Numbered from the stretch's first letter, positions 1,444 through 34,221 are shown. The stretch is DNA of 64,000 bases from GCF_054482595.1 NZ_CM137008.1, one strand, 5' to 3'. The notes: generated from the sequence alone by a model not told the origin. A program made the numbers and translations.

Positions 1444-1800
1444 GTGGTAGCACTGAATCAGGAGACTGCGTTTCCTGATGTGTGCTTCTGCAGCCGTTAC
1501 CGGATACAGACTTCGATACCAGTTACTTCGACATCCGCCATGTGTCCTGGGACCCGCTATAACGAAGTTGGAGGTAATCAGTACAGCGTTCCCGAAATGC
1601 TGTGTGGTCAGCCAGTCTCGATACGAATATCGCTGAACGATGAGTTGCGGATCTACAGTAATGAGAAACTGGTGGCCTCACATCGCCTCTGCTCAGTGTC
1701 GTCTGGCTAGCAGATAGTACCGGAACCTCACGCCCCGCTCTGGCAGCAGATCAGTCAGGTGGAACATCGACCACTGAGTGCCTATGAGGAGCTGTTGTGA
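1444..1800 (+). pseudogene. IS21-family IstA transposase C-terminal fragment
   Basis: ORF 1444..1710 contains YSVP...RIYSNEKLVASH, typical of the IstA C-terminal region; downstream frame continues to ...RPLSAYEELL; N-terminal part absent. Confidence 0.4.
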
Positions 1801-1819
1801 TGCATGTGTCAACGACGGA

Positions 1820-3590
<1,771 letters not shown>

Positions 3591-3859
3591 TACACCAGCG
3601 AAACCACACAGGTAGCTATTACCATATGTGGTAATACACTAGTTACAGGAAAAACATGCAGGTTCCGCAATACGTTGTGTGTTGCTGCTTAGTCAGGATC
3701 TTTTCTTCCATGCGAGATACGACAACACTTTTGAGGAAAGATGTTCACAACTGGTGGGGCGATTGCAACAGGTTTGTGCAGAACTCCCCCCGGATGGCAA
3801 TGCAGGGGGGAAAGGATTTTTCAGGTTGACCGCCCAGGTACATCAAATCAGTATGCTGC

Positions 3860-4585
3860 TCACGCCTGACGGTGCGATGAGTAATGTATTTCATACTCTT
3901 CCCGGTAGAGAGTTTCCCCCCAAAGAACCGGTTTATTCTCAGCAGTCAAATAAGTATGTTGTCGTACCAGAATTGGGCGGGAACGCTTTATTTTCAGCTT
4001 CTGGGCCGCATCCCGGCTGGGCAGCGCCACATGAACCTGGTTGGCAATTGTCTGTATCTCTATGCGAAGTGCCTGCTCAAAAATGTTTTGCAACGCATGG
4101 ACTTCCAGTTCCTGCTTATCTATTTGCAGGGCAAGAATTGAAGGCATATAACGAATTTCGAATGCAATTGGCTGCTGATTTATCAAGCGCAACCTTAACA
4201 GCCGATGGATGCTCTCTTTGCCTGATAACATCAGTTTTGTCCGTAAGAGTTCTGACGTTGAGACAGGTGCGAATTCGACGAGTTGATATTCGAGGTGTTT
4301 GTCGACACCAACCAGATCTTTTTCAAAAAATCCAAGAGATTGCGTATCCATTACGGTGATAATGGAAGGTTTTTTAACGAAGGTTCCACGTCCCCGAATG
4401 CGTTCAATCAATCCATCCGTAAGAAGACCCTGCATCGCATGGACCACTGTCGCTCGGGTGGTATTAAATTGGGCTGCAAGTTCGTTTTCAGAAGGTAAGC
4501 GTTCGCCTTGTTTATATACATTTTGTGCTATTCCATTGCGTAATGCTTCTCTGATCTGCAGGTAAATTGGCAAATTGCGATGCAT
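3860..4585 (-). CDS. GntR family transcriptional regulator (HutC/FarR subfamily, UTRA effector domain)
   Basis: 241 aa; N-terminal winged HTH motif (LPSENELAAQFNTTRATVVHAMQGL) followed by a UTRA-like C-terminal domain; divergent from the downstream operon. Confidence 0.85.
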   Translation of the reverse strand: MHRNLPIYLQIREALRNGIAQNVYKQGERLPSENELAAQFNTTRATVVHAMQGLLTDGLIERIRGRGTFVKKPSIITVMDTQSLGFFEKDLVGVDKHLEYQLVEFAPVSTSELLRTKLMLSGKESIHRLLRLRLINQQPIAFEIRYMPSILALQIDKQELEVHALQNIFEQALRIEIQTIANQVHVALPSRDAAQKLKIKRSRPILVRQHTYLTAENKPVLWGETLYREEYEIHYSSHRQA

Positions 4586-4608
4586 GTCAAATTAATCCTT
4601 CATTCTAA

Positions 4609-4630
4609 GTTGCATAGTCAACTATACAAC
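4609..4630. promoter_or_regulatory. near-palindromic 22 bp candidate operator in the divergent promoter region
   Basis: gttgcatagtcaactatacaac is an imperfect palindrome in the 122 bp intergenic region between the GntR gene and the amidohydrolase gene. Coordinates approximate. Confidence 0.3.
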
Positions 4631-4707
4631 TTCAAGGGTGACGGTATGTCATTTTAGCAGATATCACCTTCAGGTGTGGTCAGTTAAACATAAATGAGTT
4701 AGAGAAA

Positions 4708-5505
4708 ATGATTTTTGATACGCATGCGCATGTTTTTGTTCGAGGATTACCATTAGCGGAACATTGCCGATATGTTCCTGATTACGACGCCACACCGGAG
4801 AGTTATCTGACTCACTTGGATCGGTTTGGCATTGATGTTGGTATTCTGGTGCAACCCAGTTTTCTGGGGACGGATAACCACTATATGCTTGAGGCTCTTC
4901 GCCGTTACCCTACCCGGTTTCGTGGTGTAGCCGTTGTGGATCCAAACATTACGCGCTGTAAACTGGATGAAATGGCAAAATTAGGGGTCACTGGTATCCG
5001 CTTAAATTTAGTCGGCGTGGAAATTCCCGATCTTACGCAACCTGCATGGCAACACCTGTTAGAACATATTAAAGCCCTGGGATGGCATGTTGAGCTACAC
5101 AGAGCTGCGCGCGACTTGCCAGCGTTAATTACGGTATTACTTAAATCCGGTGTAAAGATTGTCGTTGACCATTTCGCGTTGCCTTCTCAGGAAGAGAAAC
5201 AAAACGATCCCGGATTTCAGTTTCTCCTTGAGCATGCAGAAACGCAGCAAATCTGGTTGAAACTTTCTGGCGCCTATCGCAATGGCAGTACTGAAACTCT
5301 CAACGATAACGTGGCACCGTTAATTCCTCTCCTGCTGCAGCATTTTGGACCTGCACATTTATTGTGGGGTAGCGACTGGCCACATACTCGATACGAAAAT
5401 GTCGTCAATTATCAAAAAACGTTCGAGTTACTGACGCAGCAAATACCTGATAAAGAAATGAGAAATAAAATTTTATCGGTTAGTGCAGAATCACTTATCG
5501 ATTAG
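4708..5505 (+). CDS. Amidohydro_2 family metal-dependent hydrolase (lactonase/decarboxylase-type TIM barrel)
   Basis: 265 aa; N-terminal DTHAHVF metal-binding motif and C-terminal WGSDWPH motif characteristic of the amidohydrolase-2 (LigI-like) family. Confidence 0.8.
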   Translation: MIFDTHAHVFVRGLPLAEHCRYVPDYDATPESYLTHLDRFGIDVGILVQPSFLGTDNHYMLEALRRYPTRFRGVAVVDPNITRCKLDEMAKLGVTGIRLNLVGVEIPDLTQPAWQHLLEHIKALGWHVELHRAARDLPALITVLLKSGVKIVVDHFALPSQEEKQNDPGFQFLLEHAETQQIWLKLSGAYRNGSTETLNDNVAPLIPLLLQHFGPAHLLWGSDWPHTRYENVVNYQKTFELLTQQIPDKEMRNKILSVSAESLID

Positions 5506-5536
5506 TTGGATTGAGAATATAGTCGAAAGGTATATC

Positions 5537-6886
5537 ATGAGCATATTTTATAAAAAAAGCTGGTACAAGTGGATTGTATTGGTGGTTTGTATTCTTGCCT
5601 ATTCATCAGGAAACCTGGTGCGCTGGAATTATACGGGAATATCGCAATATCTTATTGGTGAATGGCACATTGGAAAAGAAGAATTGGGGATCCTTGGTTC
5701 CGCATTCTTTTATGCCTACGCGATTGGGCAAAGTCCCTGGGGAACACTTACCGATATATTAGGCGGACGCAGAGTTATTTCTATCGGTATTTTAATTACC
5801 GCTATTATGTTCTCTCTCTTTGCTTTTGCGGGTGGCTACCATGCCGCTATCATCATTCGAGTATTAATGGGATTTGTTGGGGCGGCAACATTTGTGCCTT
5901 GTATGGCGGTACTTTCTCGCTGGTTTAGTAAAAAGGAGCGAGGTATGGTGCTGAATATCTTCTCTGGCACAGGTGGTGGATTAGGTGAGCTGTGGTCCTT
6001 TTTATTAATGCCATTGATTTCATTATTTATGGTAGGCGGCGCTACCGTGCTTGGCCTGAGCTCCTGGCGTGCATCTACGCTAATTATGGCGTTTGTCACA
6101 CTGGCGATCATGATCCTCTGTTTTGTCGGTATGCGCTCCGACCCGTCGGAATTAGGTCTTCCGTCCGTTGTTGAACAGGAGACGCGTAAGCAGGCGAAAG
6201 AACATAGCTATGCCAGGACACTGCTTAATGCGTTGCGCGATCCGTGGTTCTGGGTCATTACATTCGCCTGGCAAGGTTTTACCGTTTCTCTGCGTCTGCT
6301 ACCGGCCTGGTTGCCTATCTATGCGGCAGCTTACTACAAACAGACACAGGGATTATCCAGCGTTGAGGCGATGGTCGCAGGAGGTATGATAGCATCAGTG
6401 TATGTTGCCGGACGTATTTTGGGAACGCCTGTCTTTGGCAAATTATCTGACTTTTTGCTTGTCAGTTATAACGTACCAAGAACATTGATTATTGCTTGCT
6501 TCCATATCTTTATTACCGTCTCAATGTTTGCTCTTAGCCATCAAATGCCTTCCACATTTTTATTTGCAGTTCTGGTTTTTGTGATTGGTGCCGCGATAAA
6601 TATGTTCCCTCTGGTTAATGCAGTCGTCGCAGAAATCTGGCCGGTTAAAACGGGGGGCGCGTTAATGGGGATGGTGAATACGGTTGGGCAGTTAATAGGT
6701 GCCTCAGCGTTGGCCTACAGTGGTTTTATGGCAGAAAAATTTTCCATAGCCGGAGCAGGATACAGTTTTGAGTATCGTGGCATTTGGTATTTGGCAATGA
6801 TATTCAGTTCAATATCTATCCTGGCGTCTCTGTTGGCGATGCATCGCGAAAAACAAAGTATTCGGGAAAATGCCTTGAGTCATTAA
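5537..6886 (+). CDS. MFS transporter
   Basis: About 449 aa from the ATG with upstream AAAGG RBS; roughly 12 predicted TM segments; the longer track ORF (5483) is an upstream extension. Stop is 5 bp before the citC ATG. Confidence 0.8.
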   Translation: MSIFYKKSWYKWIVLVVCILAYSSGNLVRWNYTGISQYLIGEWHIGKEELGILGSAFFYAYAIGQSPWGTLTDILGGRRVISIGILITAIMFSLFAFAGGYHAAIIIRVLMGFVGAATFVPCMAVLSRWFSKKERGMVLNIFSGTGGGLGELWSFLLMPLISLFMVGGATVLGLSSWRASTLIMAFVTLAIMILCFVGMRSDPSELGLPSVVEQETRKQAKEHSYARTLLNALRDPWFWVITFAWQGFTVSLRLLPAWLPIYAAAYYKQTQGLSSVEAMVAGGMIASVYVAGRILGTPVFGKLSDFLLVSYNVPRTLIIACFHIFITVSMFALSHQMPSTFLFAVLVFVIGAAINMFPLVNAVVAEIWPVKTGGALMGMVNTVGQLIGASALAYSGFMAEKFSIAGAGYSFEYRGIWYLAMIFSSISILASLLAMHREKQSIRENALSH

Positions 6887-6891
6887 GCATA

Positions 6892-7947
6892 ATGTTTAAT
6901 CATATATTTACCCAGGTCAAACGTTCAGAAAATAAAAAAATGGCGGAAATCGCCCAATTCCTGCATGAAAATGATTTGAGCGTTGACACCACTGTCGAAG
7001 TATTTATTACCGTAACCCGCGATGAAAAGCTTATCGCGTGCGGCGGAATTGCCGGAAATATTATTAAATGCGTTGCTATCAGTGAATCCGTTCGCGGTGA
7101 AGGACTGGCGCTGACATTAGCCACCGAACTGATAAACCTCGCCTATGAGCGGCACAGCACGCATCTGTTTATTTATACCAAAACCGAATACGAGGCGCTG
7201 TTCCGCCAGTGCGGTTTTTCCACGCTGACCAGCGTCCCCGGCGTGATGGTGCTGATGGAAAACAGCGCCACGCGACTGAAACGCTATGCCGAATCGCTGA
7301 AAAAATTTCGTCATCCAGGGAACAAGATTGGCTGCATTGTGATGAACGCCAATCCCTTTACGAATGGTCACCGTTATCTGATTCAACAGGCTGCGGCACA
7401 GTGCGACTGGTTGCATCTGTTTTTAGTCAAAGAAGATTCTTCACGCTTCCCCTATGAAGACCGGCTGGATCTGGTGTTAAAAGGCACCGCCGATATTCCA
7501 CGCCTGACCGTGCATCGCGGCTCCGAATACATCATCTCCCGCGCTACGTTCCCTTGCTACTTCATTAAAGAACAGAGCGTCATTAACCATTGTTACACCG
7601 AAATTGATCTGAAGATTTTCCGTCAGTACCTCGCTCCCGCGCTGGGTGTAACTCACCGCTTTGTCGGTACTGAACCCTTTTGTCGCGTTACCGCCCAGTA
7701 CAACCAGGATATGCGCTACTGGCTGGAAACGCCGACTATCTCCGCACCGCCCATCGAACTGGTTGAAATTGAGCGGCTGTGTTACCAGGAGATGCCGATA
7801 TCCGCTTCCCGGGTACGCCAACTGCTGGCGAAAAACGATCTCACGGCTATCGCGCCGCTGGTCCCTGCAGTCACGCTGCATTATTTGCAGAACCTGCTTG
7901 AGCACTCCCGCCAGGACGCGGCAGCTCGTCAAAAGACCCCCGCATGA
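6892..7947 (+). CDS. citC: [citrate (pro-3S)-lyase] ligase
   Basis: Sequence recognised as CitC (MFNHIFTQVKRSENKKMAEIAQFL..., NANPFTNGHRYL motif); the track ORF starting at 6784 is an in-frame extension overlapping the MFS gene. Confidence 0.9.
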   Translation: MFNHIFTQVKRSENKKMAEIAQFLHENDLSVDTTVEVFITVTRDEKLIACGGIAGNIIKCVAISESVRGEGLALTLATELINLAYERHSTHLFIYTKTEYEALFRQCGFSTLTSVPGVMVLMENSATRLKRYAESLKKFRHPGNKIGCIVMNANPFTNGHRYLIQQAAAQCDWLHLFLVKEDSSRFPYEDRLDLVLKGTADIPRLTVHRGSEYIISRATFPCYFIKEQSVINHCYTEIDLKIFRQYLAPALGVTHRFVGTEPFCRVTAQYNQDMRYWLETPTISAPPIELVEIERLCYQEMPISASRVRQLLAKNDLTAIAPLVPAVTLHYLQNLLEHSRQDAAARQKTPA

Positions 7948-7961
7948 GAAACAGGTGAAAA

Positions 7962-8258
7962 ATGAAAATAAACCAGCCCGCCGTTGCAGGCACCCTTGAG
8001 TCTGGGGATGTGATGATACGCATCGCCCCACTCGATACGCAGGATATCGACCTGCAAATCAACAGCAGCGTTGAGAAACAGTTTGGCGATGCCATTCGCA
8101 CCACCATTCTGGACGTTCTCGCCCGCTACAACGTGCGCGGCGTACAGCTGAATGTCGATGACAAAGGCGCACTGGACTGCATTTTACGTGCACGACTGGA
8201 AGCCCTGCTGGCACGCGCCAGCGGTATCCCGGCTCTGCCATGGGAGGATTGCCAATGA
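7962..8258 (+). CDS. citD: citrate lyase acyl carrier protein (gamma subunit)
   Basis: 98 aa, [24 protein letters not shown]...; operon position. Confidence 0.9.
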
Positions 8259-9163
8259 TTTCCGCTTCGCTGCAACAACGTAAAACTCGCACCCGCCGCA
8301 GTATGTTGTTTGTACCTGGTGCTAATGCCGCGATGGTCAGCAACTCCTTCATCTACCCGGCTGATGCCCTGATGTTTGACCTCGAAGACTCCGTTGCATT
8401 GCGTGAAAAAGACACCGCCCGCCGCATGGTTTACCACGCGCTGCAACATCCGCTTTATCGCGATATTGAAACCATTGTGCGTGTAAACGCGCTGGATTCC
8501 GAATGGGGTGTTAACGACCTGGAAGCCGTCGTTCGCGGTGGTGCGGACGTTGTGCGTCTGCCGAAAACCGATACCGCTCAGGATGTTCTGGATATCGAAA
8601 AAGAGATCCTGCGTATCGAAAAAGCCTGTGGTCGTGAACCCGGCAGTACCGGCCTGCTGGCGGCGATTGAATCTCCGCTGGGCATTACCCGCGCGGTAGA
8701 AATCGCTCACGCTTCCGAGCGTTTGATCGGTATCGCCCTCGGTGCAGAAGACTATGTGCGCAACCTGCGTACAGAACGCTCCCCGGAAGGAACTGAACTG
8801 CTGTTCGCTCGCTGCTCCATTTTGCAGGCCGCGCGTTCTGCGGGTATTCAGGCGTTCGATACCGTCTATTCCGACGCTAACAACGAAGCCGGATTCCTGC
8901 AAGAAGCCGCCCACATCAAACAGCTGGGCTTTGACGGCAAATCGCTGATCAACCCGCGTCAGATTGATCTGCTGCACAACCTCTACGCACCGACCCAGAA
9001 AGAAGTGGATCACGCCCGCCGCGTCGTAGAAGCCGCTGAAGCCGCCGCTCGCGAAGGCCTCGGCGTGGTTTCCCTGAACGGCAAGATGGTGGACGGTCCG
9101 GTTATCGATCGCGCCCGTCTGGTGCTCTCCCGCGCAGAACTTTCCGGCATCCGCGAAGAATAA
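8255..9163 (+). CDS. citE: citrate lyase beta subunit (citryl-ACP lyase)
   Basis: Starts at the [10 protein letters not shown] methionine, overlapping the citD stop (ATGA); HpcH/HpaI aldolase-type sequence. Confidence 0.9.
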
Positions 9164-9173
9164 GGCAATCAAA

Positions 9174-10706
9174 ATGACGCAGAAAATTGAACAATCTCAA
9201 CGACAAGAACGGGTAGCGGCCTGGAATCGTCGCGCTGAATGCGATCTTGCCGCTTTCCAGAACTCGCCAAAGCAAACCTACCAGGCTGAAAAAGCGCGCG
9301 ATCGCAAACTGTGCGCCAACCTGGAAGAAGCGATTCGTCGCTCTGGTTTACAGGACGGCATGACGGCTTCCTTCCATCACGCTTTCCGTGGCGGTGACCT
9401 GATCGTCAATATGGTGATGGACGTCATCGCGAAGATGGGCTTTAAAAACCTGACTCTGGCCTCCAGCTCCCTGAGTGATTGCCATGCGCCGCTGGTAGAA
9501 CACATTCGCCAGGGCGTGGTTACCCGCATTTATACCTCTGGCCTGCGCGGTCCACTGGCGGAAGAAATCTCCCGTGGTCTGCTGGCGGAACCGGTGCAAA
9601 TCCACTCTCACGGCGGACGTGTGCATCTGGTACAGAGCGGCGAACTGAATATCGATGTGGCTTTCCTCGGCGTCCCGTCCTGTGATGAATTCGGTAATGC
9701 CAACGGCTACTCCGGTAAAGCCTGCTGCGGCTCCCTCGGCTATGCAATGGTTGATGCCGACAACGCAAAACAGGTCGTGATGCTTACCGAAGAACTGCTG
9801 CCTTATCCGCATAATCCGGCAAGCATTGAGCAAGATCAGGTTGATCTGATCGTCAAAGTTGATCGCGTTGGCGATGCTGCAAAAATCGGCGCTGGTGCTA
9901 CCCGTATGACCACTAACCCGCGCGAACTGCTTATTGCCCGTAGCGCTGCGGATGTGATTGTTAACTCTGGCTACTTCAAAGAAGGTTTCTCTATGCAGAC
10001 CGGCACCGGCGGCGCTTCGCTGGCGGTAACCCGTTTCCTGGAAGACAAAATGCGTAGCCGCGATATTCGCGCCGACTTCGCCCTCGGCGGTATTACCGCA
10101 ACGATGGTTGATCTGCACGAAAAAGGTCTGATCCGCAAACTGCTGGATGTGCAGAGCTTTGACAGCCATGCTGCGCAATCGCTGGCCCGTAACCCCAATC
10201 ACATCGAAATCAGCGCCAACCAGTACGCTAACTGGGGGTCGAAAGGCGCATCGGTTGATCGTCTCGACGTGGTGGTACTGAGTGCGCTGGAAATTGACAC
10301 CCAGTTCAACGTTAACGTGCTGACCGGCTCTGACGGCGTACTGCGTGGTGCTTCCGGTGGTCACTGCGATACCGCAATTGCCTCTGCGCTTTCCATCATC
10401 GTCGCGCCGCTGGTACGCGGTCGTATTCCGACGCTGGTGGATAACGTGCTGACCTGCATCACCCCGGGCTCCAGTGTCGATATTCTGGTCACAGACCACG
10501 GCATCGCTGTTAACCCGGCACGTCCGGAGCTGGCAGAACGTCTGCAGGAAGCGGGGATCAAAGTGGTTTCTATTGAGTGGCTGCGTGAACGTGCGCGTCT
10601 GCTGACCGGTGAACCACAGCCGATTGAATTCACCGACCGCGTCGTTGCCGTTGTGCGTTACCGCGATGGCTCGGTGATCGATGTTGTGCATCAGGTGAAG
10701 GAATAA
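9174..10706 (+). CDS. citF: citrate lyase alpha subunit (citrate CoA-transferase)
   Basis: 510 aa, recognised as CitF. Confidence 0.95.
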   Translation: MTQKIEQSQRQERVAAWNRRAECDLAAFQNSPKQTYQAEKARDRKLCANLEEAIRRSGLQDGMTASFHHAFRGGDLIVNMVMDVIAKMGFKNLTLASSSLSDCHAPLVEHIRQGVVTRIYTSGLRGPLAEEISRGLLAEPVQIHSHGGRVHLVQSGELNIDVAFLGVPSCDEFGNANGYSGKACCGSLGYAMVDADNAKQVVMLTEELLPYPHNPASIEQDQVDLIVKVDRVGDAAKIGAGATRMTTNPRELLIARSAADVIVNSGYFKEGFSMQTGTGGASLAVTRFLEDKMRSRDIRADFALGGITATMVDLHEKGLIRKLLDVQSFDSHAAQSLARNPNHIEISANQYANWGSKGASVDRLDVVVLSALEIDTQFNVNVLTGSDGVLRGASGGHCDTAIASALSIIVAPLVRGRIPTLVDNVLTCITPGSSVDILVTDHGIAVNPARPELAERLQEAGIKVVSIEWLRERARLLTGEPQPIEFTDRVVAVVRYRDGSVIDVVHQVKE

Positions 10707-10709
10707 GTC

Positions 10710-12123
<1,414 letters not shown>

Positions 12124-12148
12124 ATCATTAATATATCCGGAGTTAACT

Positions 12149-24440: not shown

Positions 24441-25191
24441 AGCGGAGCCATTAACTGGCAGCACGCGTCAACCCAGTTGGAGAGTAATGCACGGCTCAGC
24501 TCGACGCCCTAACGGGCAAAGATTTCACTCTGACGGTACAGTGGCAGATGTTCGCAGTATTTCCCGTTAACACACGGGCAAGCAAGCCGGGACCTGCGAT
24601 ACCACGCTCTATCGGACGGGACGGCGCCGGTGCTTCAACAATACAGTCACATTTTGTACAGGCTTTTTTTACCCGAACAGTGCGGATCACTTTCAGGGCA
24701 CTGCTCACCAGTTCCAGCTGCTCAGCACTGACTTCCCCCAGATAATCCAGCTCACTGCCACACTCCTGGCAACAACTTTCTTCAGGTTCCAGGCGGTGTA
24801 TTTCACGGGGAAGATGTGCCGGTAACGGACGACGATGACGTGACTGTCGCAACTGGCGGGGAACCTGCGGGTCATCCTCTCGCCCACTGTAACGATCGCT
24901 GTCCTGTTCTCGTTGTTTCAGTTGGGACTCAGCCTGTTCAACCTCACGCTGCAGTTTTTCAGAACGGGTACCGAACAGCATCCGGCGCAGTTTTTCTATC
25001 TGAGCCCGAAGATGTTCTATTTCCCGTTCCTCCTCTTCGATCTTTTCTTCGGCGCGGGCCAGCGCAGAGCGCAGGAAGGCCTCCGTCTCTTCAACCAGAC
25101 TCAGTTGCTGGTCTTTCTGACGGAGGGCTTCAGCCTGCTCAGAGAGCAACCTTTCCAGTTCTGCAATGCGAATGAGGTATTTCTGACTCAT
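24441..25191 (-). pseudogene. IS66 family transposase TnpC, frameshifted and 3'-truncated
   Basis: N-terminal coiled-coil and zinc-finger region intact (MSQKYLIRIAELERLLSEQ...); after GPGLLARVLT the frame shifts, and the sequence ends in a fusion with the rsmI fragment. Confidence 0.8.
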
Positions 25192-25221
25192 GACCGTTTT
25201 TATAATGCGGTCAGGAGTTTT

Positions 25222-25572
25222 TTACAACATTGTCAGTGAGTTAAGGCGGGATGTTTTTGGCTGACGCCAGTCCAGCTTATCGAGGAGCATTGCCAGTTGC
25301 GAGCGGGTAATGGATACCTTGCCGTCACGTACCGCAGGCCAGATAAACTGGCCTTCCTCCAGGTGTTTGGTGAACTGGCACAGACCATCAGAATCGGCCC
25401 AGAGTATTTTAACAGTGTCACACCGTCGGCCACGAAAGATAAACAGGTGACCTGAGAAGGGGTTCTCATCCAGCACATGTTGTACCTGTTCTCCCAGACC
25501 GTTGAAGGATTTACGCATATCGGTAACGCCGGCAACGAGCCAGATGCGGGTACCTGATGGGCGTGAGATCAT
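25222..25572 (-). CDS. IS66 family TnpB (Orf2)
   Basis: 116 aa, MISRPSGTRIWLVAGVTDMRKSFNGL...; overlaps the tnpA stop. Confidence 0.85.
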   Translation of the reverse strand: MISRPSGTRIWLVAGVTDMRKSFNGLGEQVQHVLDENPFSGHLFIFRGRRCDTVKILWADSDGLCQFTKHLEEGQFIWPAVRDGKVSITRSQLAMLLDKLDWRQPKTSRLNSLTML

Positions 25573-26006
25573 CTTCCCCTCCCGGTCAGTTCACGGATCA
25601 ACACAGTGAGCAGCTCTGGTGAAGGATTTTCCAGTGTCATTTTACCGTAATGGAATTCCACATGGCAGGAAGCCGCACAAGCAACTGATAATGCCTCCGG
25701 AGCAGGAGCATCTGTAGCACAGAGCGGGGTGTCGGTAAGTTCCACTGGAACCAGAGTCGGAGAGGCCGGAAAAGATTGTGGTACTGTAGGGCCTACAATA
25801 GTTGGAGGTATTCTACGAGAAATACGTATTTCTCTTTGCCAGAGGCGTAGCCATTTAAAAATCAGGTTGTTATCAACGCCATGTTCCCGGGCCAGTTGTG
25901 CAACATTGGCATTTGGTTTCGAAGCCAGTTCAACCATATGAAGCTTAAATTCATTAGAAAATATCCGGCGGGTCCCAGTGCGCCAGTCTGTAGATTTATC
26001 CATCAA
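25569..26006 (-). CDS. IS66 family accessory protein TnpA (Orf1)
   Basis: 145 aa with the N-terminal FSNEFKLHMVELA...AQLAREHGV HTH-like motif. Confidence 0.85.
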   Translation of the reverse strand: MMDKSTDWRTGTRRIFSNEFKLHMVELASKPNANVAQLAREHGVDNNLIFKWLRLWQREIRISRRIPPTIVGPTVPQSFPASPTLVPVELTDTPLCATDAPAPEALSVACAASCHVEFHYGKMTLENPSPELLTVLIRELTGRGR

Positions 26007-26348
26007 TAGAACTCCGTCTAATTTAGAAGGAGCTCTAATTTAGTCTGCAAGGATCAGGTGTTACAGACGGCACTGGCTTTACGTTTACAAACAGTACGTG
26101 ATGAGTATGAGGCTTTTTTATCTGTATATAATCCCTCATTCTGTAAATTGGGATAGGGCAATTTCACAATCATCCTCCTCCCATATCACCAGTATATACT
26201 GAGCCGTGTTTATCTATTTGGTTAAAATTCGCTACAATCCCATTTTCTCTTTTGGGAATATAACAGTCTCCATTGTCTCTTTATTGGTTAATGGAGACTG
26301 TGTTTAAAGGAAGAAATCAGGAGTGATTGACAGGGTACCTGTCAGCAA

Positions 26349-27659
26349 TCAATACAATTCAGATTCCAGTTTTCCGTTCCCTGCAATTTTATTTAGTCCG
26401 GGAGAGTTCAATCTCTCCAGACATAACGAAAACAGTTCAACACCTGTATCCAGCACATTTTCATCAAAATCAAAATCAACTTCGTGATGACCTGCTTTTA
26501 AATCACTGCCAAGTATTATATATGCAGCTTTTCCTCCTCTCTTCTGTACACGGCGAATAAGGATCGTTGCATCTTCACTGCCCCCAAATGATTTATCTGT
26601 CAAAGACATGTTCATATCTTCTTGTGCTATATAGTGTATCAGATTGACAAGTAAAGGGTCATTATGTAAATCCGTTGCTTCACCAACCACTTTGTACTCA
26701 AAACGTAAACCAAATATGGAAGAAATACCTTGTGCTATTTTTAGAGCATGTTCACGCATGTATTGATTTATTGTTTCCGTTTCTCCACGAACTTCAAGCT
26801 GCATCCTTGCAAAAGACGGGATTATGTTCCTTCCTTCACCTGCGTTTAGAGTGCCAATATTTATCCGGGACATACCTTCACCATGGCGTGGAATGGCAAG
26901 TAATTGCGTTGCACAGTGACAAGCTGCTGCCAGTGCATTATTTCCCAGGTGAGGATTTACACCAGCATGTGCCGGAGTACCATAGAAAAAGAAATCCATT
27001 TTTGTCGTACACAACAAATCTGTAGGTGAAGCGACAACATTTCCTGTAGGAACTCCCATACCAATATGTGCAGAAAGGAAGTAGTCGCAGTCATCAAGAA
27101 TACCACCTTCTGCAATAGGTTTTGCACCGCGAACGCCTTCTTCTGCAGCCTGAAAAATTAGCTTAATTTTCCCGCATAACTTATGGTTATTTTCAGATAC
27201 CCATTGTGCCAATCCTAAACCAATCGATATATGACCATCATGTCCACATGCATGCATTAAGCCAGAGTGTATGGATGCAAATCCCATTTTTTCAGGAATA
27301 TGATCTTTCGATTTTGATTCACTTACCTGTACACAATCAATGTCAAAACGAAACGCAGTGACAGCTCCATTTTTTCCTGTATCCCATAAAGCAACACACC
27401 CTGTAAAGCCATCCATTTCATCCAGCAATTCATGGGGAACGCCTGAATCAACTGCACGTTTTATACTATCTGCAACTTCAGTTGCATTACGGCCCATAAT
27501 ATATTCTATTGACAGGTATTTATTCCCCGTAATAACCTGCCATCCCATACCACGCAGAATAGTAATTATCTTTGACGTTGTGATAAATTCGCACCACCCA
27601 CTTTCCGGAATATGGTGAAATTCTCTCCGCCATTTTTGTAACTGATTCAGTTCAGACAT
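26349..27659 (-). CDS. M20D family amidohydrolase (AbgA/HipO-like)
   Basis: 436 aa; HACGHDGH and other M20 metal-binding motifs. Confidence 0.85.
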   Translation of the reverse strand: MSELNQLQKWRREFHHIPESGWCEFITTSKIITILRGMGWQVITGNKYLSIEYIMGRNATEVADSIKRAVDSGVPHELLDEMDGFTGCVALWDTGKNGAVTAFRFDIDCVQVSESKSKDHIPEKMGFASIHSGLMHACGHDGHISIGLGLAQWVSENNHKLCGKIKLIFQAAEEGVRGAKPIAEGGILDDCDYFLSAHIGMGVPTGNVVASPTDLLCTTKMDFFFYGTPAHAGVNPHLGNNALAAACHCATQLLAIPRHGEGMSRINIGTLNAGEGRNIIPSFARMQLEVRGETETINQYMREHALKIAQGISSIFGLRFEYKVVGEATDLHNDPLLVNLIHYIAQEDMNMSLTDKSFGGSEDATILIRRVQKRGGKAAYIILGSDLKAGHHEVDFDFDENVLDTGVELFSLCLERLNSPGLNKIAGNGKLESELY

Positions 27660-27671
27660 ATACGCCTCCTG

Positions 27672-28961
27672 TTAAAGGAATAATAATGCAATAAACAATA
27701 CCGTCACAATCATTCCGGGGGCAGTGCGTTTTGCAATTTCAACTGGATTAACTCCAGCCAGACCGGCACAGATAATAGTTGCACCAGCCAACGGAGACAT
27801 GTTTCTCCCCAGCGCAGAAGCCAGCATAACTGCAGCACCCAGAGTATTTGTATCGTAACCAAAATTGTTCGCATGTGGTGTGACAACTTCATTGAATGCG
27901 AATGCAGTCGCATCCCCTGTTCCGGTTATAAGTCCCATCAGGAATGGCCCCAATGTACCGCCCCAGCGGGCAAATTCTGGTGAGTCAATAAGAAATCTGA
28001 TAAACACATCAATGATACCAACAGATTTTAAACCTTCAATGAAAACAGCTGCGGCAATTATGATCCCAAGAATATTTGCATATGATGTCCCCATACCCTC
28101 AAAGAAGCTGGAAACTAATTCTTTGGGATTGGATTTACTGACAATCAGGGCATAAAGACAACCGAGAATCATTGCGGCTGGAACGGTTATTTTAGTCTCT
28201 CCAAGAAAACCAAATTCAGCCAGCATAAGTAATGCTATGGGAAGAAATGGTGCTACAGATTTCAGATAAAAACAGATACCACGGTCAGTGAACTCAACCT
28301 GTGTTTGTTCTGATATGTTTCCTGCAGAATCACATTTTGTTTCTTTTCTTACAATAGCAACAACTGTAAGAATAACAGCACATATTACACCACATGTTAT
28401 CGTAGTCGGAGTATGGAATACAACGAATTCCATTAATGGTGTTTGTGATATTTTAGATATAAATGCATTATGTGCAACACCGGGATTGAGGTAAGCACCT
28501 ATAGTTCCTGAAAGGATAGCTGCCCCGGCTATTGCAGGATGAATACGTGCTGAAATAAGTAATGGTATCAACGTTGCACCAACAGCAGCTGATGCGCCAG
28601 CAGCAGATGGAATCGCGATGCAAATAATAAAACTGACGGTAACCGCAGCAGGAATAAGAAAGATACCAAGACGAGATAATCCTTTCGTTAGAAAATGAAC
28701 CAGGCATGTATCACAACCAGTGAATTTCATAACACAGGCAAAGCCCATACTGGTACAAATAGCCTGAATAAGGCCGGACTCAGTCATTCTGCTTGCAAAT
28801 GCCGAAAATGCGTTTAAAGGTGACATGGCAACTATACATAGCAGAAGACCTGCACCAATTAGTGTCGTTCGTGTGTCGTATCTTTTTATCAAAAGCACAA
28901 CTGTGATTATCAGAATCACACATCCAGTTATCACGTTAAACATGAGATCCACCTCCTTCAA
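27672..28961 (-). CDS. DcuC-family anaerobic carrier-type membrane transporter
   Basis: 429 aa polytopic membrane protein with DcuC-like C-terminal pattern; forms an operon with the M20 gene (12 bp gap). Confidence 0.65.
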   Translation of the reverse strand: MKEVDLMFNVITGCVILIITVVLLIKRYDTRTTLIGAGLLLCIVAMSPLNAFSAFASRMTESGLIQAICTSMGFACVMKFTGCDTCLVHFLTKGLSRLGIFLIPAAVTVSFIICIAIPSAAGASAAVGATLIPLLISARIHPAIAGAAILSGTIGAYLNPGVAHNAFISKISQTPLMEFVVFHTPTTITCGVICAVILTVVAIVRKETKCDSAGNISEQTQVEFTDRGICFYLKSVAPFLPIALLMLAEFGFLGETKITVPAAMILGCLYALIVSKSNPKELVSSFFEGMGTSYANILGIIIAAAVFIEGLKSVGIIDVFIRFLIDSPEFARWGGTLGPFLMGLITGTGDATAFAFNEVVTPHANNFGYDTNTLGAAVMLASALGRNMSPLAGATIICAGLAGVNPVEIAKRTAPGMIVTVLFIALLFL

Positions 28962-29078
28962 AGATAGATAATCTTTACTTTATGTGATTTGCTCAAATAT
29001 TGATCATGAACAAAAAAAACAATTAACCGGGGATACTATTATGATGGAGGTGATAACAGAAAATTATCAGGCGAAAAA

Positions 29079-29996
29079 ATGAAACATATGCCTAAACTTC
29101 AACAAATTAAATTTTTTAATGAAATAGTCCTGTGCGGAAGTTTAAGATCTGCCGCCCGTAAAATGAATATATCTCAGCCAGCATTAAGCAGAACGATAAA
29201 AGAATTGGAGAATGTATTAGGATGTAACCTTCTGATTCGAACAAGGGATGGTATCGTTTTAACAGAAGCTGGAAAGATATTCTCGGTCCATTCACGTATG
29301 ATTCTTGAAGAGGTTGAAACTGCAGCTCTTGAAGTTGCGAAAGTAAATATAGATAACACAGGGAAAGTAGCTTTTGGAATTTCTTCGCTGTTTGGCGTAA
29401 CAATACTGAATAATGTACTTGATAACTTCCGGATGAAATATCCGAAAACGCGTGTGATGATAAGAGAGGGACAGTTGTCTTCCCTTATCCCTTACCTGAG
29501 AGAAGGTGTTCTGGATTTTGCAATGGGTACATTAACAAAAGACATGCCAGTTGGAGATTTTATTGCGGTTGAATTGTTTAACGCACCGTTCACTATAGTG
29601 GCAAGAAAACACCATCCTTTAAGGAACTGTACATCAATTGATGAACTTGCAACTGCAAGATGGGTATTCCCGGAAACTCAAATGGGATACTATCATTATA
29701 TATCCCGTCTTATTCCCTTTGGACATCCTGATGAACCATATGCTCCAATATTTACCGATTCGGTAGTTTGTATTATGAATCTTGTTCTCTATGATGACTA
29801 TATAACGGTTCTCTCCAGAGCAAGGTTACAGGAAGCAAGATTCAAAGAAATATTGTGTTCAATTCCTGTTAAGTATCAACTACCCGTTAGCCAGTACGGG
29901 CTTATTTATCCACGAAAAAGGTTAATGACGGCACCAGCACAAATAATGATTGAATATTTTCAACAAGAGATACAACGATATGACTGGAATGGATGA
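29079..29996 (+). CDS. LysR family transcriptional regulator
   Basis: 305 aa; N-terminal HTH (LRSAARKMNISQPALSRTIKELE) and LysR substrate-binding domain; divergent from the transporter/hydrolase operon. Confidence 0.85.
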   Translation: MKHMPKLQQIKFFNEIVLCGSLRSAARKMNISQPALSRTIKELENVLGCNLLIRTRDGIVLTEAGKIFSVHSRMILEEVETAALEVAKVNIDNTGKVAFGISSLFGVTILNNVLDNFRMKYPKTRVMIREGQLSSLIPYLREGVLDFAMGTLTKDMPVGDFIAVELFNAPFTIVARKHHPLRNCTSIDELATARWVFPETQMGYYHYISRLIPFGHPDEPYAPIFTDSVVCIMNLVLYDDYITVLSRARLQEARFKEILCSIPVKYQLPVSQYGLIYPRKRLMTAPAQIMIEYFQQEIQRYDWNG

Positions 29997-30049
29997 GCAA
30001 TACCCGGAATGATGGTGCCGTTACGGGGAAGTCATCTTCACAGAAATTT

Positions 30050-31801
30050 TCAGTCCATTAGCATTCCGGTATTCGTACAACTTCCTTTGGTGGAGAGTAA
30101 ACAATGACCAGGATGCGATGGACGCTTGACCAGAAAAAACATCACGTTGCTGCATGGCGTGCCAGTGGTCTTACACGCCAGCAATACTGTGAACTCAACG
30201 ATATTCCCTTCACATCACTTCGCGAATGGCCGCAGGATGTCGCAAAAGCTGAACGCCGGGCAAATGAACCGACCGTTCTTCCCGTTCATATTGCGCCACC
30301 ACTGCATGCTGATGTATCACAGCCCGTCACGAATGAGCCAGTCACGCTCTTCCTCCCCGGCGGAGTACGGATGTGCTGTCAGCCGTCACAACTTACCGAT
30401 GTCTTCAGGGCGCTCAAATGTGCTCAGTCCTGATAATGTCTTCATCGCGATTAAACCTGCTGATATGCGCCGGGGCATCGACACACTGACGCAGTATATA
30501 CAGGATGAACTCAGGTCGACATGGCATGAGGGAGCCGCCTTCGTCTTTGTTAACAAAGCCCGTTCGCGTATCAAAGTTCTGCGCTGGGATAAACACGGGG
30601 TGTGGTTGTGTACCCGTCGTCTGCATAAAGGCAGCTTCCGCTGGCCACGTACAAATGACGTTGCCTGGCACCTCACTCCCGACGAGTTTAATTGGCTTAT
30701 TGCCGGTGTTGCCTGGCAGCAAGTTAAGGGACATGACCTGACGAAATGGGTCTGGCTGAATGAAGCTGAACTGCGTGCTATGGCACTTGCCATGGTGCAA
30801 AAAGTCATGTCGGAGAATGCCGAAAAAGAGCGGGAATTACTGGAGAAAAGCCGGCGCATCCAGCTTCTGGACGAAATGCTGAAACTGGTTCGTCAACAGC
30901 GCTTCGGTAAAAATGTGAGACGCTGGCTGGTATGCAACGCTCCCTGTTCGAAGAGGATGTTGATGCCGATATCGCCGCGCTCACCGCACATCTGGATAAA
31001 CTGCTCCCGCAATCCCCTGAAGAAGACGAAAAAGCGCCCCGTTCATGCCCGATACGCAAACCCTTACCGGTCCATCTTCCACGGGTGGAAAAAATTATCC
31101 AGCCGGACACTGACCATTGCCCTGAATGTGACGAGCTGCTGCACTATATCCGTGATGCGGTGAGTGAAAAGCTGGAGTATATTCCCGCTCACTTCGTGGT
31201 GAACCGTTATGTCCGTCCGCAATACAGTTGTCCCTGTTGCCTGAAGGTGTTTAGCGGTGAAATGCCGGCACATATCCTCCCGAAAAGTGCCGTTGAGCCG
31301 TCAGTCATCGCACAGGTGATCATCAATAAATACAGTGACCACCAGCCTCTGTATCGCCAGCAACAGATCTTTGCCCGTTCAGATGTCGGGCTGCCCGTCA
31401 GTTCGATGGCTGATATGGTTGGCGCGTCGGGAGCCACATTATCCCCCCTGGCGGCGTTACTCCATCGCGAGTTGATAAGCCGTCAGGTGGTGCATGCAGA
31501 TGAGACTACCCTGAAGATCCTGAACACGAAGAAAGGCGGTAAATCCTGCTCCTGTTATCTGTGGGCATACGTCAGTGGAGAAAGGACAGGACCGTCAGTT
31601 GTGTGTTTCGACTGCCGGACCGGACGTAGCCATGAGTATCCTGAAAACTGGCTTCAGAGCTGGGTCGGGACACTGGTTGTTGACGGACATAAAGCTTACC
31701 GGACTCTGGCAAACAAAGTGCCGGAGATCACGCTGGCCGGATGCTGGGCCCATGTCAGTCATGCCAGTGAAACTGGTGATGTAGTTCATGTCGATCAGTA
31801 G
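30050..31801 (+). mobile_element. second IS66-family element of a different subtype, with frameshifted and 3'-truncated tnpC
   Basis: tnpA 30104..30433, tnpB frame about 30430..30770 (inside track ORF 30126..31163), tnpC pieces up to 31801 (coiled-coil then CPECDELL zinc finger, HADETTLKIL, AGCWAH), split over frames and ending prematurely. Ends approximate. Confidence 0.75.
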
Positions 31802-32908: not shown

Positions 32909-33860
32909 TTAGCGAACGATAATCCCTAACAAAATACCCAGTACGCCAAAGTCAGCATCACTGGAGGTGGTGTTAGCAAAACCAATATCATCCAGCACAG
33001 GCAATAAGAATACTGGCGGGAAGGTAATAGGCAAGCCTTGAGCGAAGGCACCCAAAATCGCACCACGACGTCCCCCCGTTGCATTACCGAATACCCCTGC
33101 AGTTGCACCTACGAAGAAGTGCGGCACCATACCAGGAATAATCACGATCATGTTCAGCAGATACAACGTGAACATACCGATTAAACCTGCAGCAAAGCTG
33201 CTCAGGAAACCAACCAGTATAGCGTTAGGTGCGTAAGGGAAGACGACCCGGGAATCGAGAGCTGGTCTGGCATTCGGAACCAGCTTGTCTGAAATACCTT
33301 TGAATGCCGGGACAATCTCCGCAATCACCATGCGCACACCCTGCAGAATGATGTAAACACCTGCTGCGAAGGTAATAGATTGCATGATGGAGAACATGAA
33401 CCAGTTTTTACCACCACTAAGCTCTTTCACCACATCTGCACGCGCAAACAGGCACGTCACCAGGAAAATTATGCTCATGGTAAAAGAGATAGCAACCGGC
33501 GTGTCGCGCAAGAACAGCAGACTTTTCGGCACATTCATGTCTTCAGTCGAGTGGTCTTTATTACCAAACTTGCTGCCGATGAAACCGGCCAATACATAAG
33601 ATAATGTTGAGAAGTGGCCGATGGCAACGTCATCAGAACCGGTCACTTTCTTCATGTACGGATGCGCAATAGCCGGGAAAAAGACCATTGCCACGCCAAC
33701 AACCAAAGAGCCAACGGCTATAAGCGTAATGCCGGTCATGCCTGCTGTTGCCAGAATTACCGCTACCATCATCGACATAAACAACGTGTGATGACCGGTC
33801 AGGAAGATAAATTTCCACGGTGTGAAACGGGCAATCAGAATGTTGATAACCATCAGAAAC
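32909..33860 (-). pseudogene. PTS EIIC (ascorbate-type, UlaA/SgaT/SgcC family) gene, N-terminally truncated
   Basis: About 315 aa of polytopic membrane protein with UlaA/SgaT-like C-terminal region; first about 20 codons of the track ORF are junk overlapping the sgcE fragment; opposite in orientation to the adjacent sgcE/sgcR. Confidence 0.65.
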
Positions 33861-33861
33861 G

Positions 33862-34221
33862 CTGGACTATCCCTCGGAAACGTTAGCTGAGATCCGCCAT
33901 ACCGGCGCACGAGCCGGGCTGGCATTTAATCCGGCGACCCCAATCGACGCCTGGCAATATCTGGCGTCTGAGCTGGACGGCGTGATGGTGATGACCTGTG
34001 AGCCCGATGGGCACGGACAGCGGTTTATTCCCTCTATGTGCGAGAAAATCCAAAAAGTACGCACGGCTTTTCCTCAGACCGAGTGCTGGGCCGACGGTGG
34101 AATTACGCTGGCGGCAGCACAGCAACTGGCTGCAGCCGGGGGGCAGCATATGGTGATTGGGCGCGTCTTGTTCTTTTCATCTGACTATCGCGCGACCTTA
34201 GTTCAATTCGCCACCCTGTAA
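33862..34221 (+). pseudogene. sgcE: pentulose-phosphate 3-epimerase gene, 3' fragment
   Basis: In-frame translation upstream of ORF 33982..34221 reads ...LALNPATPIDAWQYLASELDGVMVMTCEPDGHGQRFIPSMCEKIQKVRTAFPQTECWADGGITLAAAQQLAAAGG..., matching the SgcE C-terminal half; N-terminal half absent. Confidence 0.75.

Follow-up and report, generated by a model that had tools for sequence, protein, structure and literature searches.

A low-GC cassette of Escherichia coli pairs an AbgA-type amidohydrolase with a DcuC-family carrier

What can an abg-type amidohydrolase do for a cell when it comes without the second subunit and without the carrier of the abg operon? The question is raised by a three-gene cassette in a stretch of 64,000 nucleotides (nt) of Escherichia coli DNA (NZ_CM137008.1 of GCF_054482595.1; this whole stretch is called the window below), where the gene for a LysR-type regulator points away from a two-gene operon that encodes a carrier of the DcuC family and, downstream of it, a metallo-amidohydrolase of the M20D family. 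A prediction made from the sequence alone had likened this layout to abgR/abgAB/abgT, the aminobenzoyl-glutamate utilization genes, and had proposed the import and hydrolysis, possibly anaerobic, of an N-acyl amino acid or dicarboxylate amide.

Although uncharacterized, the cassette is a widespread relative of the abg operon for folate catabolites, and the kind of system it represents is not new. Its gene identities and family placement, the conserved linkage of its genes, its foreign origin, and the purifying selection acting on it are established here. With moderate confidence, we read it as a self-contained, horizontally acquired catabolic or salvage cassette for the import and cleavage of an acidic amino-acid amide or dipeptide, a reading in which we infer the transport direction, the substrate class, the oligomeric state, and the regulation.

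Three genes of an abg-like cassette

All three open reading frames (ORFs) are intact (3/3), and the lysR gene is divergent from a carrier-then-M20D operon, as the original prediction had it. The hydrolase gene (26349 to 27659, minus strand) encodes an M20D metallo-amidohydrolase of the AbgA subfamily (436 amino acids [aa], including a lineage-specific 13-aa tail at the C terminus). Upstream of it on the same strand lies the gene for a divergent secondary carrier of the DcuC family (IT superfamily, elevator type). Its ORF proper spans 27672 to 28961, but translation probably begins with the ATG at 28943, since GGAGG stands ahead of this codon and the resulting 423-aa product (27672 to 28943) agrees with its twins in RefSeq. 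The carrier stop codon is separated from the hydrolase ATG by 12 nt. Across a divergent control region of 135 bp (28944 to 29078) follows the gene for a LysR-type regulator of the TdcA/AbgR/PcaQ subgroup (29079 to 29996, plus strand; 305 aa). RefSeq labels the three products "amidohydrolase," "C4-dicarboxylate transporter DcuC," and "LysR substrate-binding domain-containing protein," and an Rfam scan of the cassette returned no match, i.e., no known riboswitch or small RNA.

The hydrolase joins a catalytic domain (Peptidase_M20, PF01546) to a dimerization domain (M20_dimer, PF07687) and scores 261 bits on the M20D model TIGR01891 (cutoff, 153.75), which confirms the predicted M20D assignment; comparison with the two E. 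coli subunits sharpens it to the AbgA subfamily, in that the identity to K-12 AbgA is 42% over the full length and that to AbgB merely 26%, over 186 residues. The closest solved structure, PDB 3IO1 from Klebsiella (E 2.7e-109, residues 7 to 421 aligned), has all catalytic motifs in common with the window hydrolase; it is a structural-genomics entry without a substrate assignment, and its own likeness is to the true AbgA branch. Residues C138/H140 (within MHACGHD), E173/E174, H198, and H391/H392 show no variation in the alignment of the hydrolase family, AbgA included, and the motifs line up with those of 3IO1 and 1YSJ. In the M20D structures of ILL2, YxeP, and HmrA, the Cys-x-His, the Glu-Glu pair, and the two His positions supply the metal ligands and the catalytic base, and they presumably do so here; Sapep (PMC2937973) is a PepV-like enzyme of M20A and was left out of this comparison. 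Judged by these residues, the enzyme is not catalytically dead: a hydrolase with missing metal ligands, which the original prediction had named as a way in which it could fail, is not what the window encodes, as all M20D ligand residues are retained. Other M20D enzymes, namely, YxeP of Bacillus subtilis (1YSJ), plant ILL2 (1XMB), an N-acyl-glutamine aminoacylase (6SLF), and HmrA (3RAM), cleave N-acyl amino acids and have the fold and metal-binding motifs in common with the window hydrolase, but they match far more weakly (E 1e-27 to 1e-12) and are without the AbgA-specific N-terminal insert region.

A rough neighbor-joining (NJ) tree, built without support values, resolves three clades inside one AbgA-like superclade. 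One, gammaproteobacterial and DcuC-linked, holds the window hydrolase; another, also DcuC-linked, consists of Negativicutes; and the third is true AbgA (K-12/Photorhabdus), to which the clade of the window hydrolase is sister. With 42% identity and a place in a distinct, DcuC-linked clade of this rough tree, the hydrolase was rejected as an AbgA orthologue. An AbgB-like gene was found neither anywhere in the 64-kb window nor at any DcuC-linked locus examined, which bears out the expectation of a single M20 subunit gene; abgAB, carried by 4201 of 5426 E. coli genomes (77%), may exist elsewhere in the host genome. The 13-aa tail (...NKIAGNGKLESELY; window positions 26349 to 26390) is missing from all relatives (~422 aa); it results from a shift of the frame by a single base, as seen against an E. 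coli variant of 90% identity whose hydrolase has 423 aa.

Some database names among the relatives deserve mention. UniRef calls the hydrolase orthologue of Edwardsiella hoshinae an "Indole-3-acetyl-aspartic acid hydrolase," a name that is at most a lead toward kinship with the Enterobacter agglomerans enzyme. Leminorella grimontii has two hydrolase paralogues (P0036 and P0040) on one 4.3-Mb contig, one of which the source names AbgA. A homologue of 51% identity (P0095) was deposited as a protein of Dictyostelium dimigraforme, on a 1.4-Mb contig, and is probably a bacterial sequence inside a eukaryotic assembly.

The carrier is matched by the Pfam domain DcuC (PF03606) at E 1e-25 and passes both TIGR00771 (210.6 bits versus a cutoff of 187) and NF037994 (444 versus 100). 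The latter model is family-wide (genuine DcuC scores 404 and DcuD 436), and as such, the name "DcuC" that PGAP bases on it is uninformative on substrate. Orthology to DcuC was rejected, at 100.7 against a PRK10654 cutoff of 513 (genuine DcuC, 890), as was orthology to DcuD, at 66.5 against a PRK09804 cutoff of 623 (genuine DcuD, 1030); identity to the two is 24 to 26%. Like DcuC/DcuD (TC 2.A.61), the carrier is a member of PF03606 and TIGR00771, and it resembles them in length and predicted topology, but it fails their equivalog models, and carriers of its type are always linked to amidohydrolases or peptidases, whereas dcuC and dcuD are not. Nor does the carrier belong to AbgT: BLASTP to K-12 AbgT gives E 0.074, and there is no AbgT Pfam match. 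Profile searches and BLASTP together therefore uphold the earlier description of the transporter as DcuC-like and not AbgT.

A search of PDB sequences with the carrier gave no meaningful match, and its fold was compared by way of an AlphaFold2 (AF2) model (pLDDT 80, pTM 0.79) and Foldseek. The model resembles elevator-type carriers of the IT superfamily, including TRAP M subunits (template modeling [TM] scores of 0.66 to 0.67), VcINDY and other DASS dicarboxylate carriers, and ArsB, and it also resembles the AbgT family (YdaH, TM 0.66; MtrF, TM 0.56). Beside the dicarboxylate carriers, the likeness covers elevator carriers for sialate. Going by this model, the carrier of abg has been swapped for one from another family of the same architecture.

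The cassette can accordingly be set beside E. coli abgR/abgA-abgB-abgT. Common to both are a divergent LysR (31% identical to AbgR), an AbgA-type M20D enzyme, a secondary carrier for what would be an anionic amide, the elevator fold of the IT superfamily (by model, for the window carrier), and the fact that neither has an established physiological substrate (PMC5082436). The window cassette differs in that it is without AbgB, has a gene for a DcuC-family carrier in first position where abgT comes last, encodes a hydrolase of a separate clade, and has a regulator that falls under the cutoff of the AbgR model. Overall, the abg-like reading is supported by the AbgA-subfamily hydrolase and the AbgR-subgroup regulator, and every element of it that could be checked held.

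A conserved carrier-hydrolase pair and its candidate substrates

Homologues of the hydrolase (51 to 70% identical) and of the carrier (50 to 74% identical) occur over matching taxonomic ranges, which take in Plesiomonas, Edwardsiella, Salmonella, Serratia, Brenneria, Budviciaceae, Proteus/Providencia, Aeromonas, Photobacterium, and Pasteurellaceae, and in about twenty pairs of hydrolase and carrier clusters the longest contig is of equal length. The two genes stand together, carrier first, in 13 of the 14 non-E. coli loci examined, and such recurrence argues against a chance arrangement. Gammaproteobacterial genera that keep the pair number more than 10. It was seen directly in Plesiomonas (L098), a Plesiomonas-like contig (L003/L004), Edwardsiella (L005), "Enterobacter" lignolyticus (L087), Providencia (L089), Photobacterium (L090), and Limnobaculum (L100); among Pasteurellaceae in Basfia (L088), Mannheimia (L101), and Lonepinella (L102); and among Negativicutes, with both proteins 42 to 46% identical, in Succiniclasticum and two Selenomonadales (L011, L013, and L015). 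The sole exception is Pasteurella multocida (L099), where pepE and the carrier gene have no adjacent hydrolase gene. A divergent LysR (45 to 65% identical) joins the pair in Plesiomonas, Edwardsiella, E. lignolyticus, and Photobacterium.

This linkage bears on the possibility that the carrier is an ordinary one for C4-dicarboxylates (succinate, fumarate, or aspartate), with the hydrolase as an unrelated neighbor or merely a feeder of product. Such a carrier would fit the DcuC-family membership, the name that PGAP gives by way of the family-wide NF037994, a fold that matches dicarboxylate carriers (e.g., VcINDY), and the FNR-like site upstream (described below). It fits poorly with the low identity to DcuC and DcuD and the scores far under both equivalog cutoffs, with the 12-nt gap to the hydrolase gene, with a pairing that is kept across two phyla and a carrier gene that is co-operonic with peptidase genes, and with a cassette that moves as a unit into at least three E. 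coli contexts; we regard it as distinctly unlikely. The original prediction had also allowed that the transporter might turn out to be a firm C4-dicarboxylate exchanger without a link to amides, and what we found is a carrier below both equivalog cutoffs that is linked to amidohydrolases and peptidases across taxa.

More distant AbgA-like loci were obtained by scanning contigs for the back-translated motif MHACGHD, which is too general a motif; close relatives are not among the matches listed. Among those that are, other AbgA-like genes (40 to 50% identical) pair with AbgT instead (L007 to L010, L014, and L020), with AbgB in Photorhabdus abgRABT (L014), L007, and L020 and without it in L008 to L010. 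Because AbgA-like genes pair with either, AbgT and the DcuC-like carriers can be considered interchangeable partners. In L008 to L010 (Clostridia and Evansella), where AbgA-like and AbgT genes occur with no AbgB gene, an M20D paralogue of 24% identity adjoins; such loci suggest that some abg-type systems can do without AbgB or have a substitute for it.

Clues to the substrate come from genes that adjoin the pair in other taxa. In Mannheimia and Lonepinella, the operon is ordered pepE–carrier–hydrolase, with a divergent gene for a 411-aa M20 protein of the hydantoinase/carbamoylase family. The PepE of these Pasteurellaceae scores 324 bits against a cutoff of 156, and PepE is an Asp-X dipeptidase (PMC11078827). 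A carbamoylase-type M20 adjoins the pair in five loci of three lineages (Mannheimia, Lonepinella, Basfia, Providencia, and Succiniclasticum); it exceeds the cutoff of PRK09290.1-5, and its next-best model is N-carbamyl-L-glutamate amidohydrolase. In Plesiomonas, a homologue of beta-aspartyl peptidase lies 3 kb from the pair.

The window cassette has the same gene order as the Pasteurellaceae pepE–dcuC-like–abgA-like cluster, and its carrier and hydrolase are orthologous to those encoded there (50 to 54% identical), but PepE and a second M20 are extra in the Pasteurellaceae clusters, which are without a divergent LysR, such that the window holds a minimal, LysR-controlled version. These clusters span 3945 to 8614 in Mannheimia (L101), 2650 to 8702 in Lonepinella (L102), and 1729 to 6269 in Basfia (L088), and that of Lonepinella adds two "Gate"-domain membrane proteins. 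The Pasteurellaceae cluster of carbamoylase-type M20, pepE, carrier, and hydrolase genes appears to be uncharacterized.

Does the cassette simply duplicate abg? In the abg system, p-aminobenzoyl-glutamate (PABA-Glu) enters by way of AbgT and is hydrolyzed by AbgA2B2 with Mn2+ (PMC5082436). Were the cassette functionally equivalent, it would take up and cleave the same compound, salvaging PABA and Glu; the DcuC-type carrier would stand in for AbgT, and a homomer of the AbgA-type enzyme would stand in for AbgA2B2. Much about the cassette is in keeping with this: AbgA is the closest characterized relative of the hydrolase, the closest structure (3IO1) was named "aminobenzoyl-glutamate utilization protein" by its depositor, the regulator is akin to AbgR, the partner of an AbgA-like gene is AbgT at some loci and a DcuC-like carrier at others, and PABA-Glu is itself a dicarboxylate amide. 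However, the hydrolase is just 42% identical to AbgA and belongs to a separate clade; AbgB, which PABA-Glu hydrolase (PGH) needs (PMC5082436), is missing at every DcuC-linked locus; a duplicate would add little where abgAB is already in 77% of genomes; and the pepE and carbamoylase neighbors favor Asp-type peptides or amides. Equivalence to abg is, on these grounds, unlikely, if not negligibly so.

We favor instead the import and cleavage of a different acidic amide or dipeptide. An anionic amide based on Asp or Glu is the most economical substrate, given the PepE and carbamoylase neighbors, the kinship of the hydrolase to AbgA, and the bias of the DcuC family toward dicarboxylates; the substrate class is one that we infer through guilt by association. 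The LysR-type regulator would bind a T-N11-A dyad near its own start, sense the substrate or the product, and activate the divergent operon. The elevator-type carrier of the DcuC family would import the anionic amide, which may be an N-acyl- or N-carbamoyl-Asp/Glu or a dipeptide containing Asp or Glu. In the cytoplasm, the AbgA-subfamily M20D enzyme, presumed to be a homodimer without AbgB, would cut the amide bond, and cleavage would yield Asp or Glu plus an acyl or amino-acid moiety. An FNR-like site may add oxygen-dependent control.

Several points weigh against this proposal. DcuC of E. coli serves mainly in efflux or exchange, which leaves import uncertain, and the standalone activity of an AbgA-type protein is assumed. 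The window cassette has just three genes, with no pepE or carbamoylase gene among them, and the clue to its substrate is therefore borrowed from distant loci. PGH of E. coli requires AbgB and left the tested dipeptides uncleaved (PMC5082436). Lastly, a literature search returned no experimental work on the carrier-hydrolase pair; what it did return is the in silico annotation of HI0585/HI0586 (PMC3877243), genes of Haemophilus influenzae that go with the Pasteurellaceae cluster.

A further alternative turns the transport direction around. In a module for detoxification and export, the hydrolase would inactivate a toxic amide (an antimetabolite or a peptide-like antibiotic) and the carrier would export the product, in the way that MtrF and YdaH export sulfonamides and PABA-type compounds. 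The carrier does have a fold like those of YdaH and MtrF, DcuC itself, as noted, works in efflux, and the cassette is mobile cargo flanked by insertion sequences (ISs). Moreover, PepE-like peptidases of family S51 can protect against peptidyl-nucleotide antibiotics (PMC9239234). But the pair is chromosomal, stable, and beside catabolic genes in most taxa, the combination of a LysR-type transcriptional regulator (LTTR), a permease, and a hydrolase is a typical catabolic layout, and no resistance context was seen, with the cassette on no E. coli plasmid, all of which makes detoxification very improbable.

The control region and the 3′ hairpin

The regulator has the LysR-type domains HTH_1 and LysR_substrate (Pfam) and is oriented divergently to the operon. 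Its best NCBIfam model is TdcA (233.7 bits versus a cutoff of 308), and its second best is NF007307 (200.7 bits versus a cutoff of 336), which we identify as the AbgR model because K-12 AbgR scores 629 on it. Being below both equivalog cutoffs, the regulator was rejected as an orthologue of either AbgR or TdcA and is only of the same subgroup; TdcA, the activator of the tdc operon, has this subgroup in common with it and supplies the top model but has another target operon.

Two candidate binding sites lie in the divergent control region. The first, 11 nt upstream of the lysR ATG, is the perfect dyad GATAA-N7-TTATC (29052 to 29068), a candidate LysR-type box of the T-N11-A form; Plesiomonas has a perfect dyad, TATCA-N7-TGATA, in the equivalent position, and related TATCA/T-rich motifs occur near the lysR-side dyad position in Edwardsiella and E. 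lignolyticus. The second is a putative palindrome of the FNR/CRP type, TTGATCATGAACAA (29000 to 29013), which has 9 of the 10 consensus bases and is centered 63.5 nt upstream of the carrier ATG. The aligned position in Edwardsiella and E. lignolyticus reads TTGCGTTAAATCAA. Allowing for at most one mismatch, FNR-like sites lie upstream of the carrier gene in 3 of 10 orthologous regions, versus 0.22 expected from shuffles (P ~0.001; by a rough estimate, P ~0.02 with the window excluded), and the pattern is unremarkable across the whole window (9 matches versus 3.4 expected). It counts against a role for FNR that the pattern was picked after its first sighting in the window; alternatively, TTGATCATGAACAA could be the activation site of the LTTR. 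Anaerobic control is possible, and the FNR-like site is the sole feature that hints, weakly, at it. A scan for consensus promoters found no strong sigma-70 promoter in the 135-bp intergenic region, as would be expected of a promoter that depends on an activator.

A hairpin had been predicted to follow the hydrolase gene, and there is indeed a perfect 12-bp stem with a 15-nt loop at 26263 to 26301 on the minus strand (arms, 26263 to 26274 and 26290 to 26301), ~48 nt past the hydrolase stop codon. It occurs once in the window, and the 131-nt 3′ region around it folds with a z score of -4.1. The arms are unchanged in the 90%-identical E. coli variant despite diverged loop and flanks, and the homology between the 100% and 90% variants stops just beyond the hairpin. 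A weaker hairpin of 7 bp (~26328 to 26346), right after the stop codon, is not kept in the 90% variant. The 12-bp hairpin marks where the conserved cassette ends on its 3′ side and is probably an atypical terminator or an RNA-stabilizing stem; the stem is strong and conserved, but the loop is long at 15 nt, there is no U-tract (4 of the 8 following nt are U), and a terminator scan did not call it.

Origin and spread in E. coli and what the cassette may mean

In E. coli, the cassette is rare, horizontally acquired foreign DNA. It is present in 14 of 5426 complete genomes, and its three genes have GC contents of 0.38 to 0.42 (0.28 to 0.30 at third codon positions [GC3]), compared with 0.49 for the window. 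The transferred DNA spans 26089 to 30017, within which 26257 to 30007 is the minimal unit common to the 90% variant. On the left it is flanked by a decayed IS66-family element (24496 to 26088, minus strand) with tnpA, tnpB, and a truncated tnpC, and homology with strains that are without the module ends at ~26088; on the right it is flanked by a second, different decayed element of the same family (30018 to 31801, plus strand) with tnpA and with tnpB and tnpC pseudogenes. Both elements turn their tnpA-proximal ends toward the cassette. A composite transposon was ruled out: the flanking elements differ and are decayed, and there are no common terminal inverted or direct repeats and no target duplication. 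In a cassette-less strain, the same island is cut at the IS66 element by IS100, and the surrounding island is mosaic. The original prediction was right as to the layout of an abg-like module but had missed this foreign, IS66-flanked, low-GC, and E. coli-rare nature.

Ten complete RefSeq genomes, O157:H16 Santai and SCEC020001 among them, match positions 26000 to 30100 at 100% identity. Elsewhere in E. coli, the cassette lies beside iol genes without the right IS66 element (98% identity), near other mobile elements (99.6%), or in the form of the 90% variant. In strain E7-1N7, which carries that variant, a decayed gene for a DDE transposase sits between the carrier gene and lysR (L093, 8960 to 9750) and presumably uncouples the regulation. 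A search of E. coli plasmids found the cassette on none; megaplasmids of Plesiomonas contain homologues of 66 to 67% DNA identity, as do records from Proteus and Providencia. The nearest named relative is Plesiomonas shigelloides (67% identical in DNA and 65 to 74% in protein); the true donor is outside the sampled sequences.

A rare passenger between decayed ISs might be decaying junk, currently functionless in E. coli, and several observations could be so read: the pseudogenized IS66 elements on either side and the mosaic island, the low count of genomes, the altered C terminus of the hydrolase, and the insertion inside the control region of one variant. Selection tells otherwise. Between the 100% and 90% variants, ratios of nonsynonymous to synonymous divergence (dN/dS) of 0.11 (hydrolase), 0.14 (carrier), and 0.07 (regulator) place all three genes under purifying selection. 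The three ORFs are intact, identical copies occur in unrelated strains from human, duck, mink, and chicken sources, and the hydrolase cluster is found on hundreds of E. coli contigs; junk cargo is hence scarcely credible.

At 19196 to 24076 of the window, a malX-like gene for a phosphotransferase system (PTS) IIBC component and a MalY/PatB-like gene are followed by the gene for a 637-aa, secreted-looking protein that RefSeq twins call "enterotoxin," "alpha-galactosidase," or hypothetical. At ~8240 to 14746, ORF sizes fit citE/citF/citX/citG/acnB as strain 746 carries them on the same island (L092), and by this correspondence in size the region would be a second, island-borne citrate-lyase/aconitase cluster. 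From 32909 to 33925 onward, a truncated gene for an ascorbate-type PTS IIC component and an epimerase fragment precede sgcR and yjhIHGF (in the annotation of identical RefSeq genomes), and this stretch looks like what is left of a KpLE2-like region that became joined to the island.

For E. coli, the cassette represents a rare accessory trait of nutrient acquisition on a mosaic island and no determinant of virulence or resistance, and its mechanism is the conventional one of a regulator-permease-hydrolase cassette. Its wider interest lies with the carrier family. Tentatively, and as a possibility that falls short of probable, the DcuC branch may be a dedicated importer of Asp/Glu dipeptides or of N-blocked Asp/Glu (N-acetyl-, N-carbamoyl-, or aroyl-; of host, diet, or microbiota), with AbgA-type homomers that cleave these compounds without AbgB, which would amount to a widespread and unrecognized salvage pathway of Enterobacterales, Pasteurellaceae, Vibrionaceae, and Negativicutes. 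If so, anionic amides and acidic dipeptides would be a new substrate class for a branch that is uniformly labeled "C4-dicarboxylate transporter DcuC" and that is probably misannotated as a whole, and AbgA-type hydrolases would work without AbgB. The cassette would then offer a tractable three-gene handle on abg-type physiology, with its own regulator as a biosensor, and a dedicated importer of this kind would hint at the physiological role of the abg operon itself.

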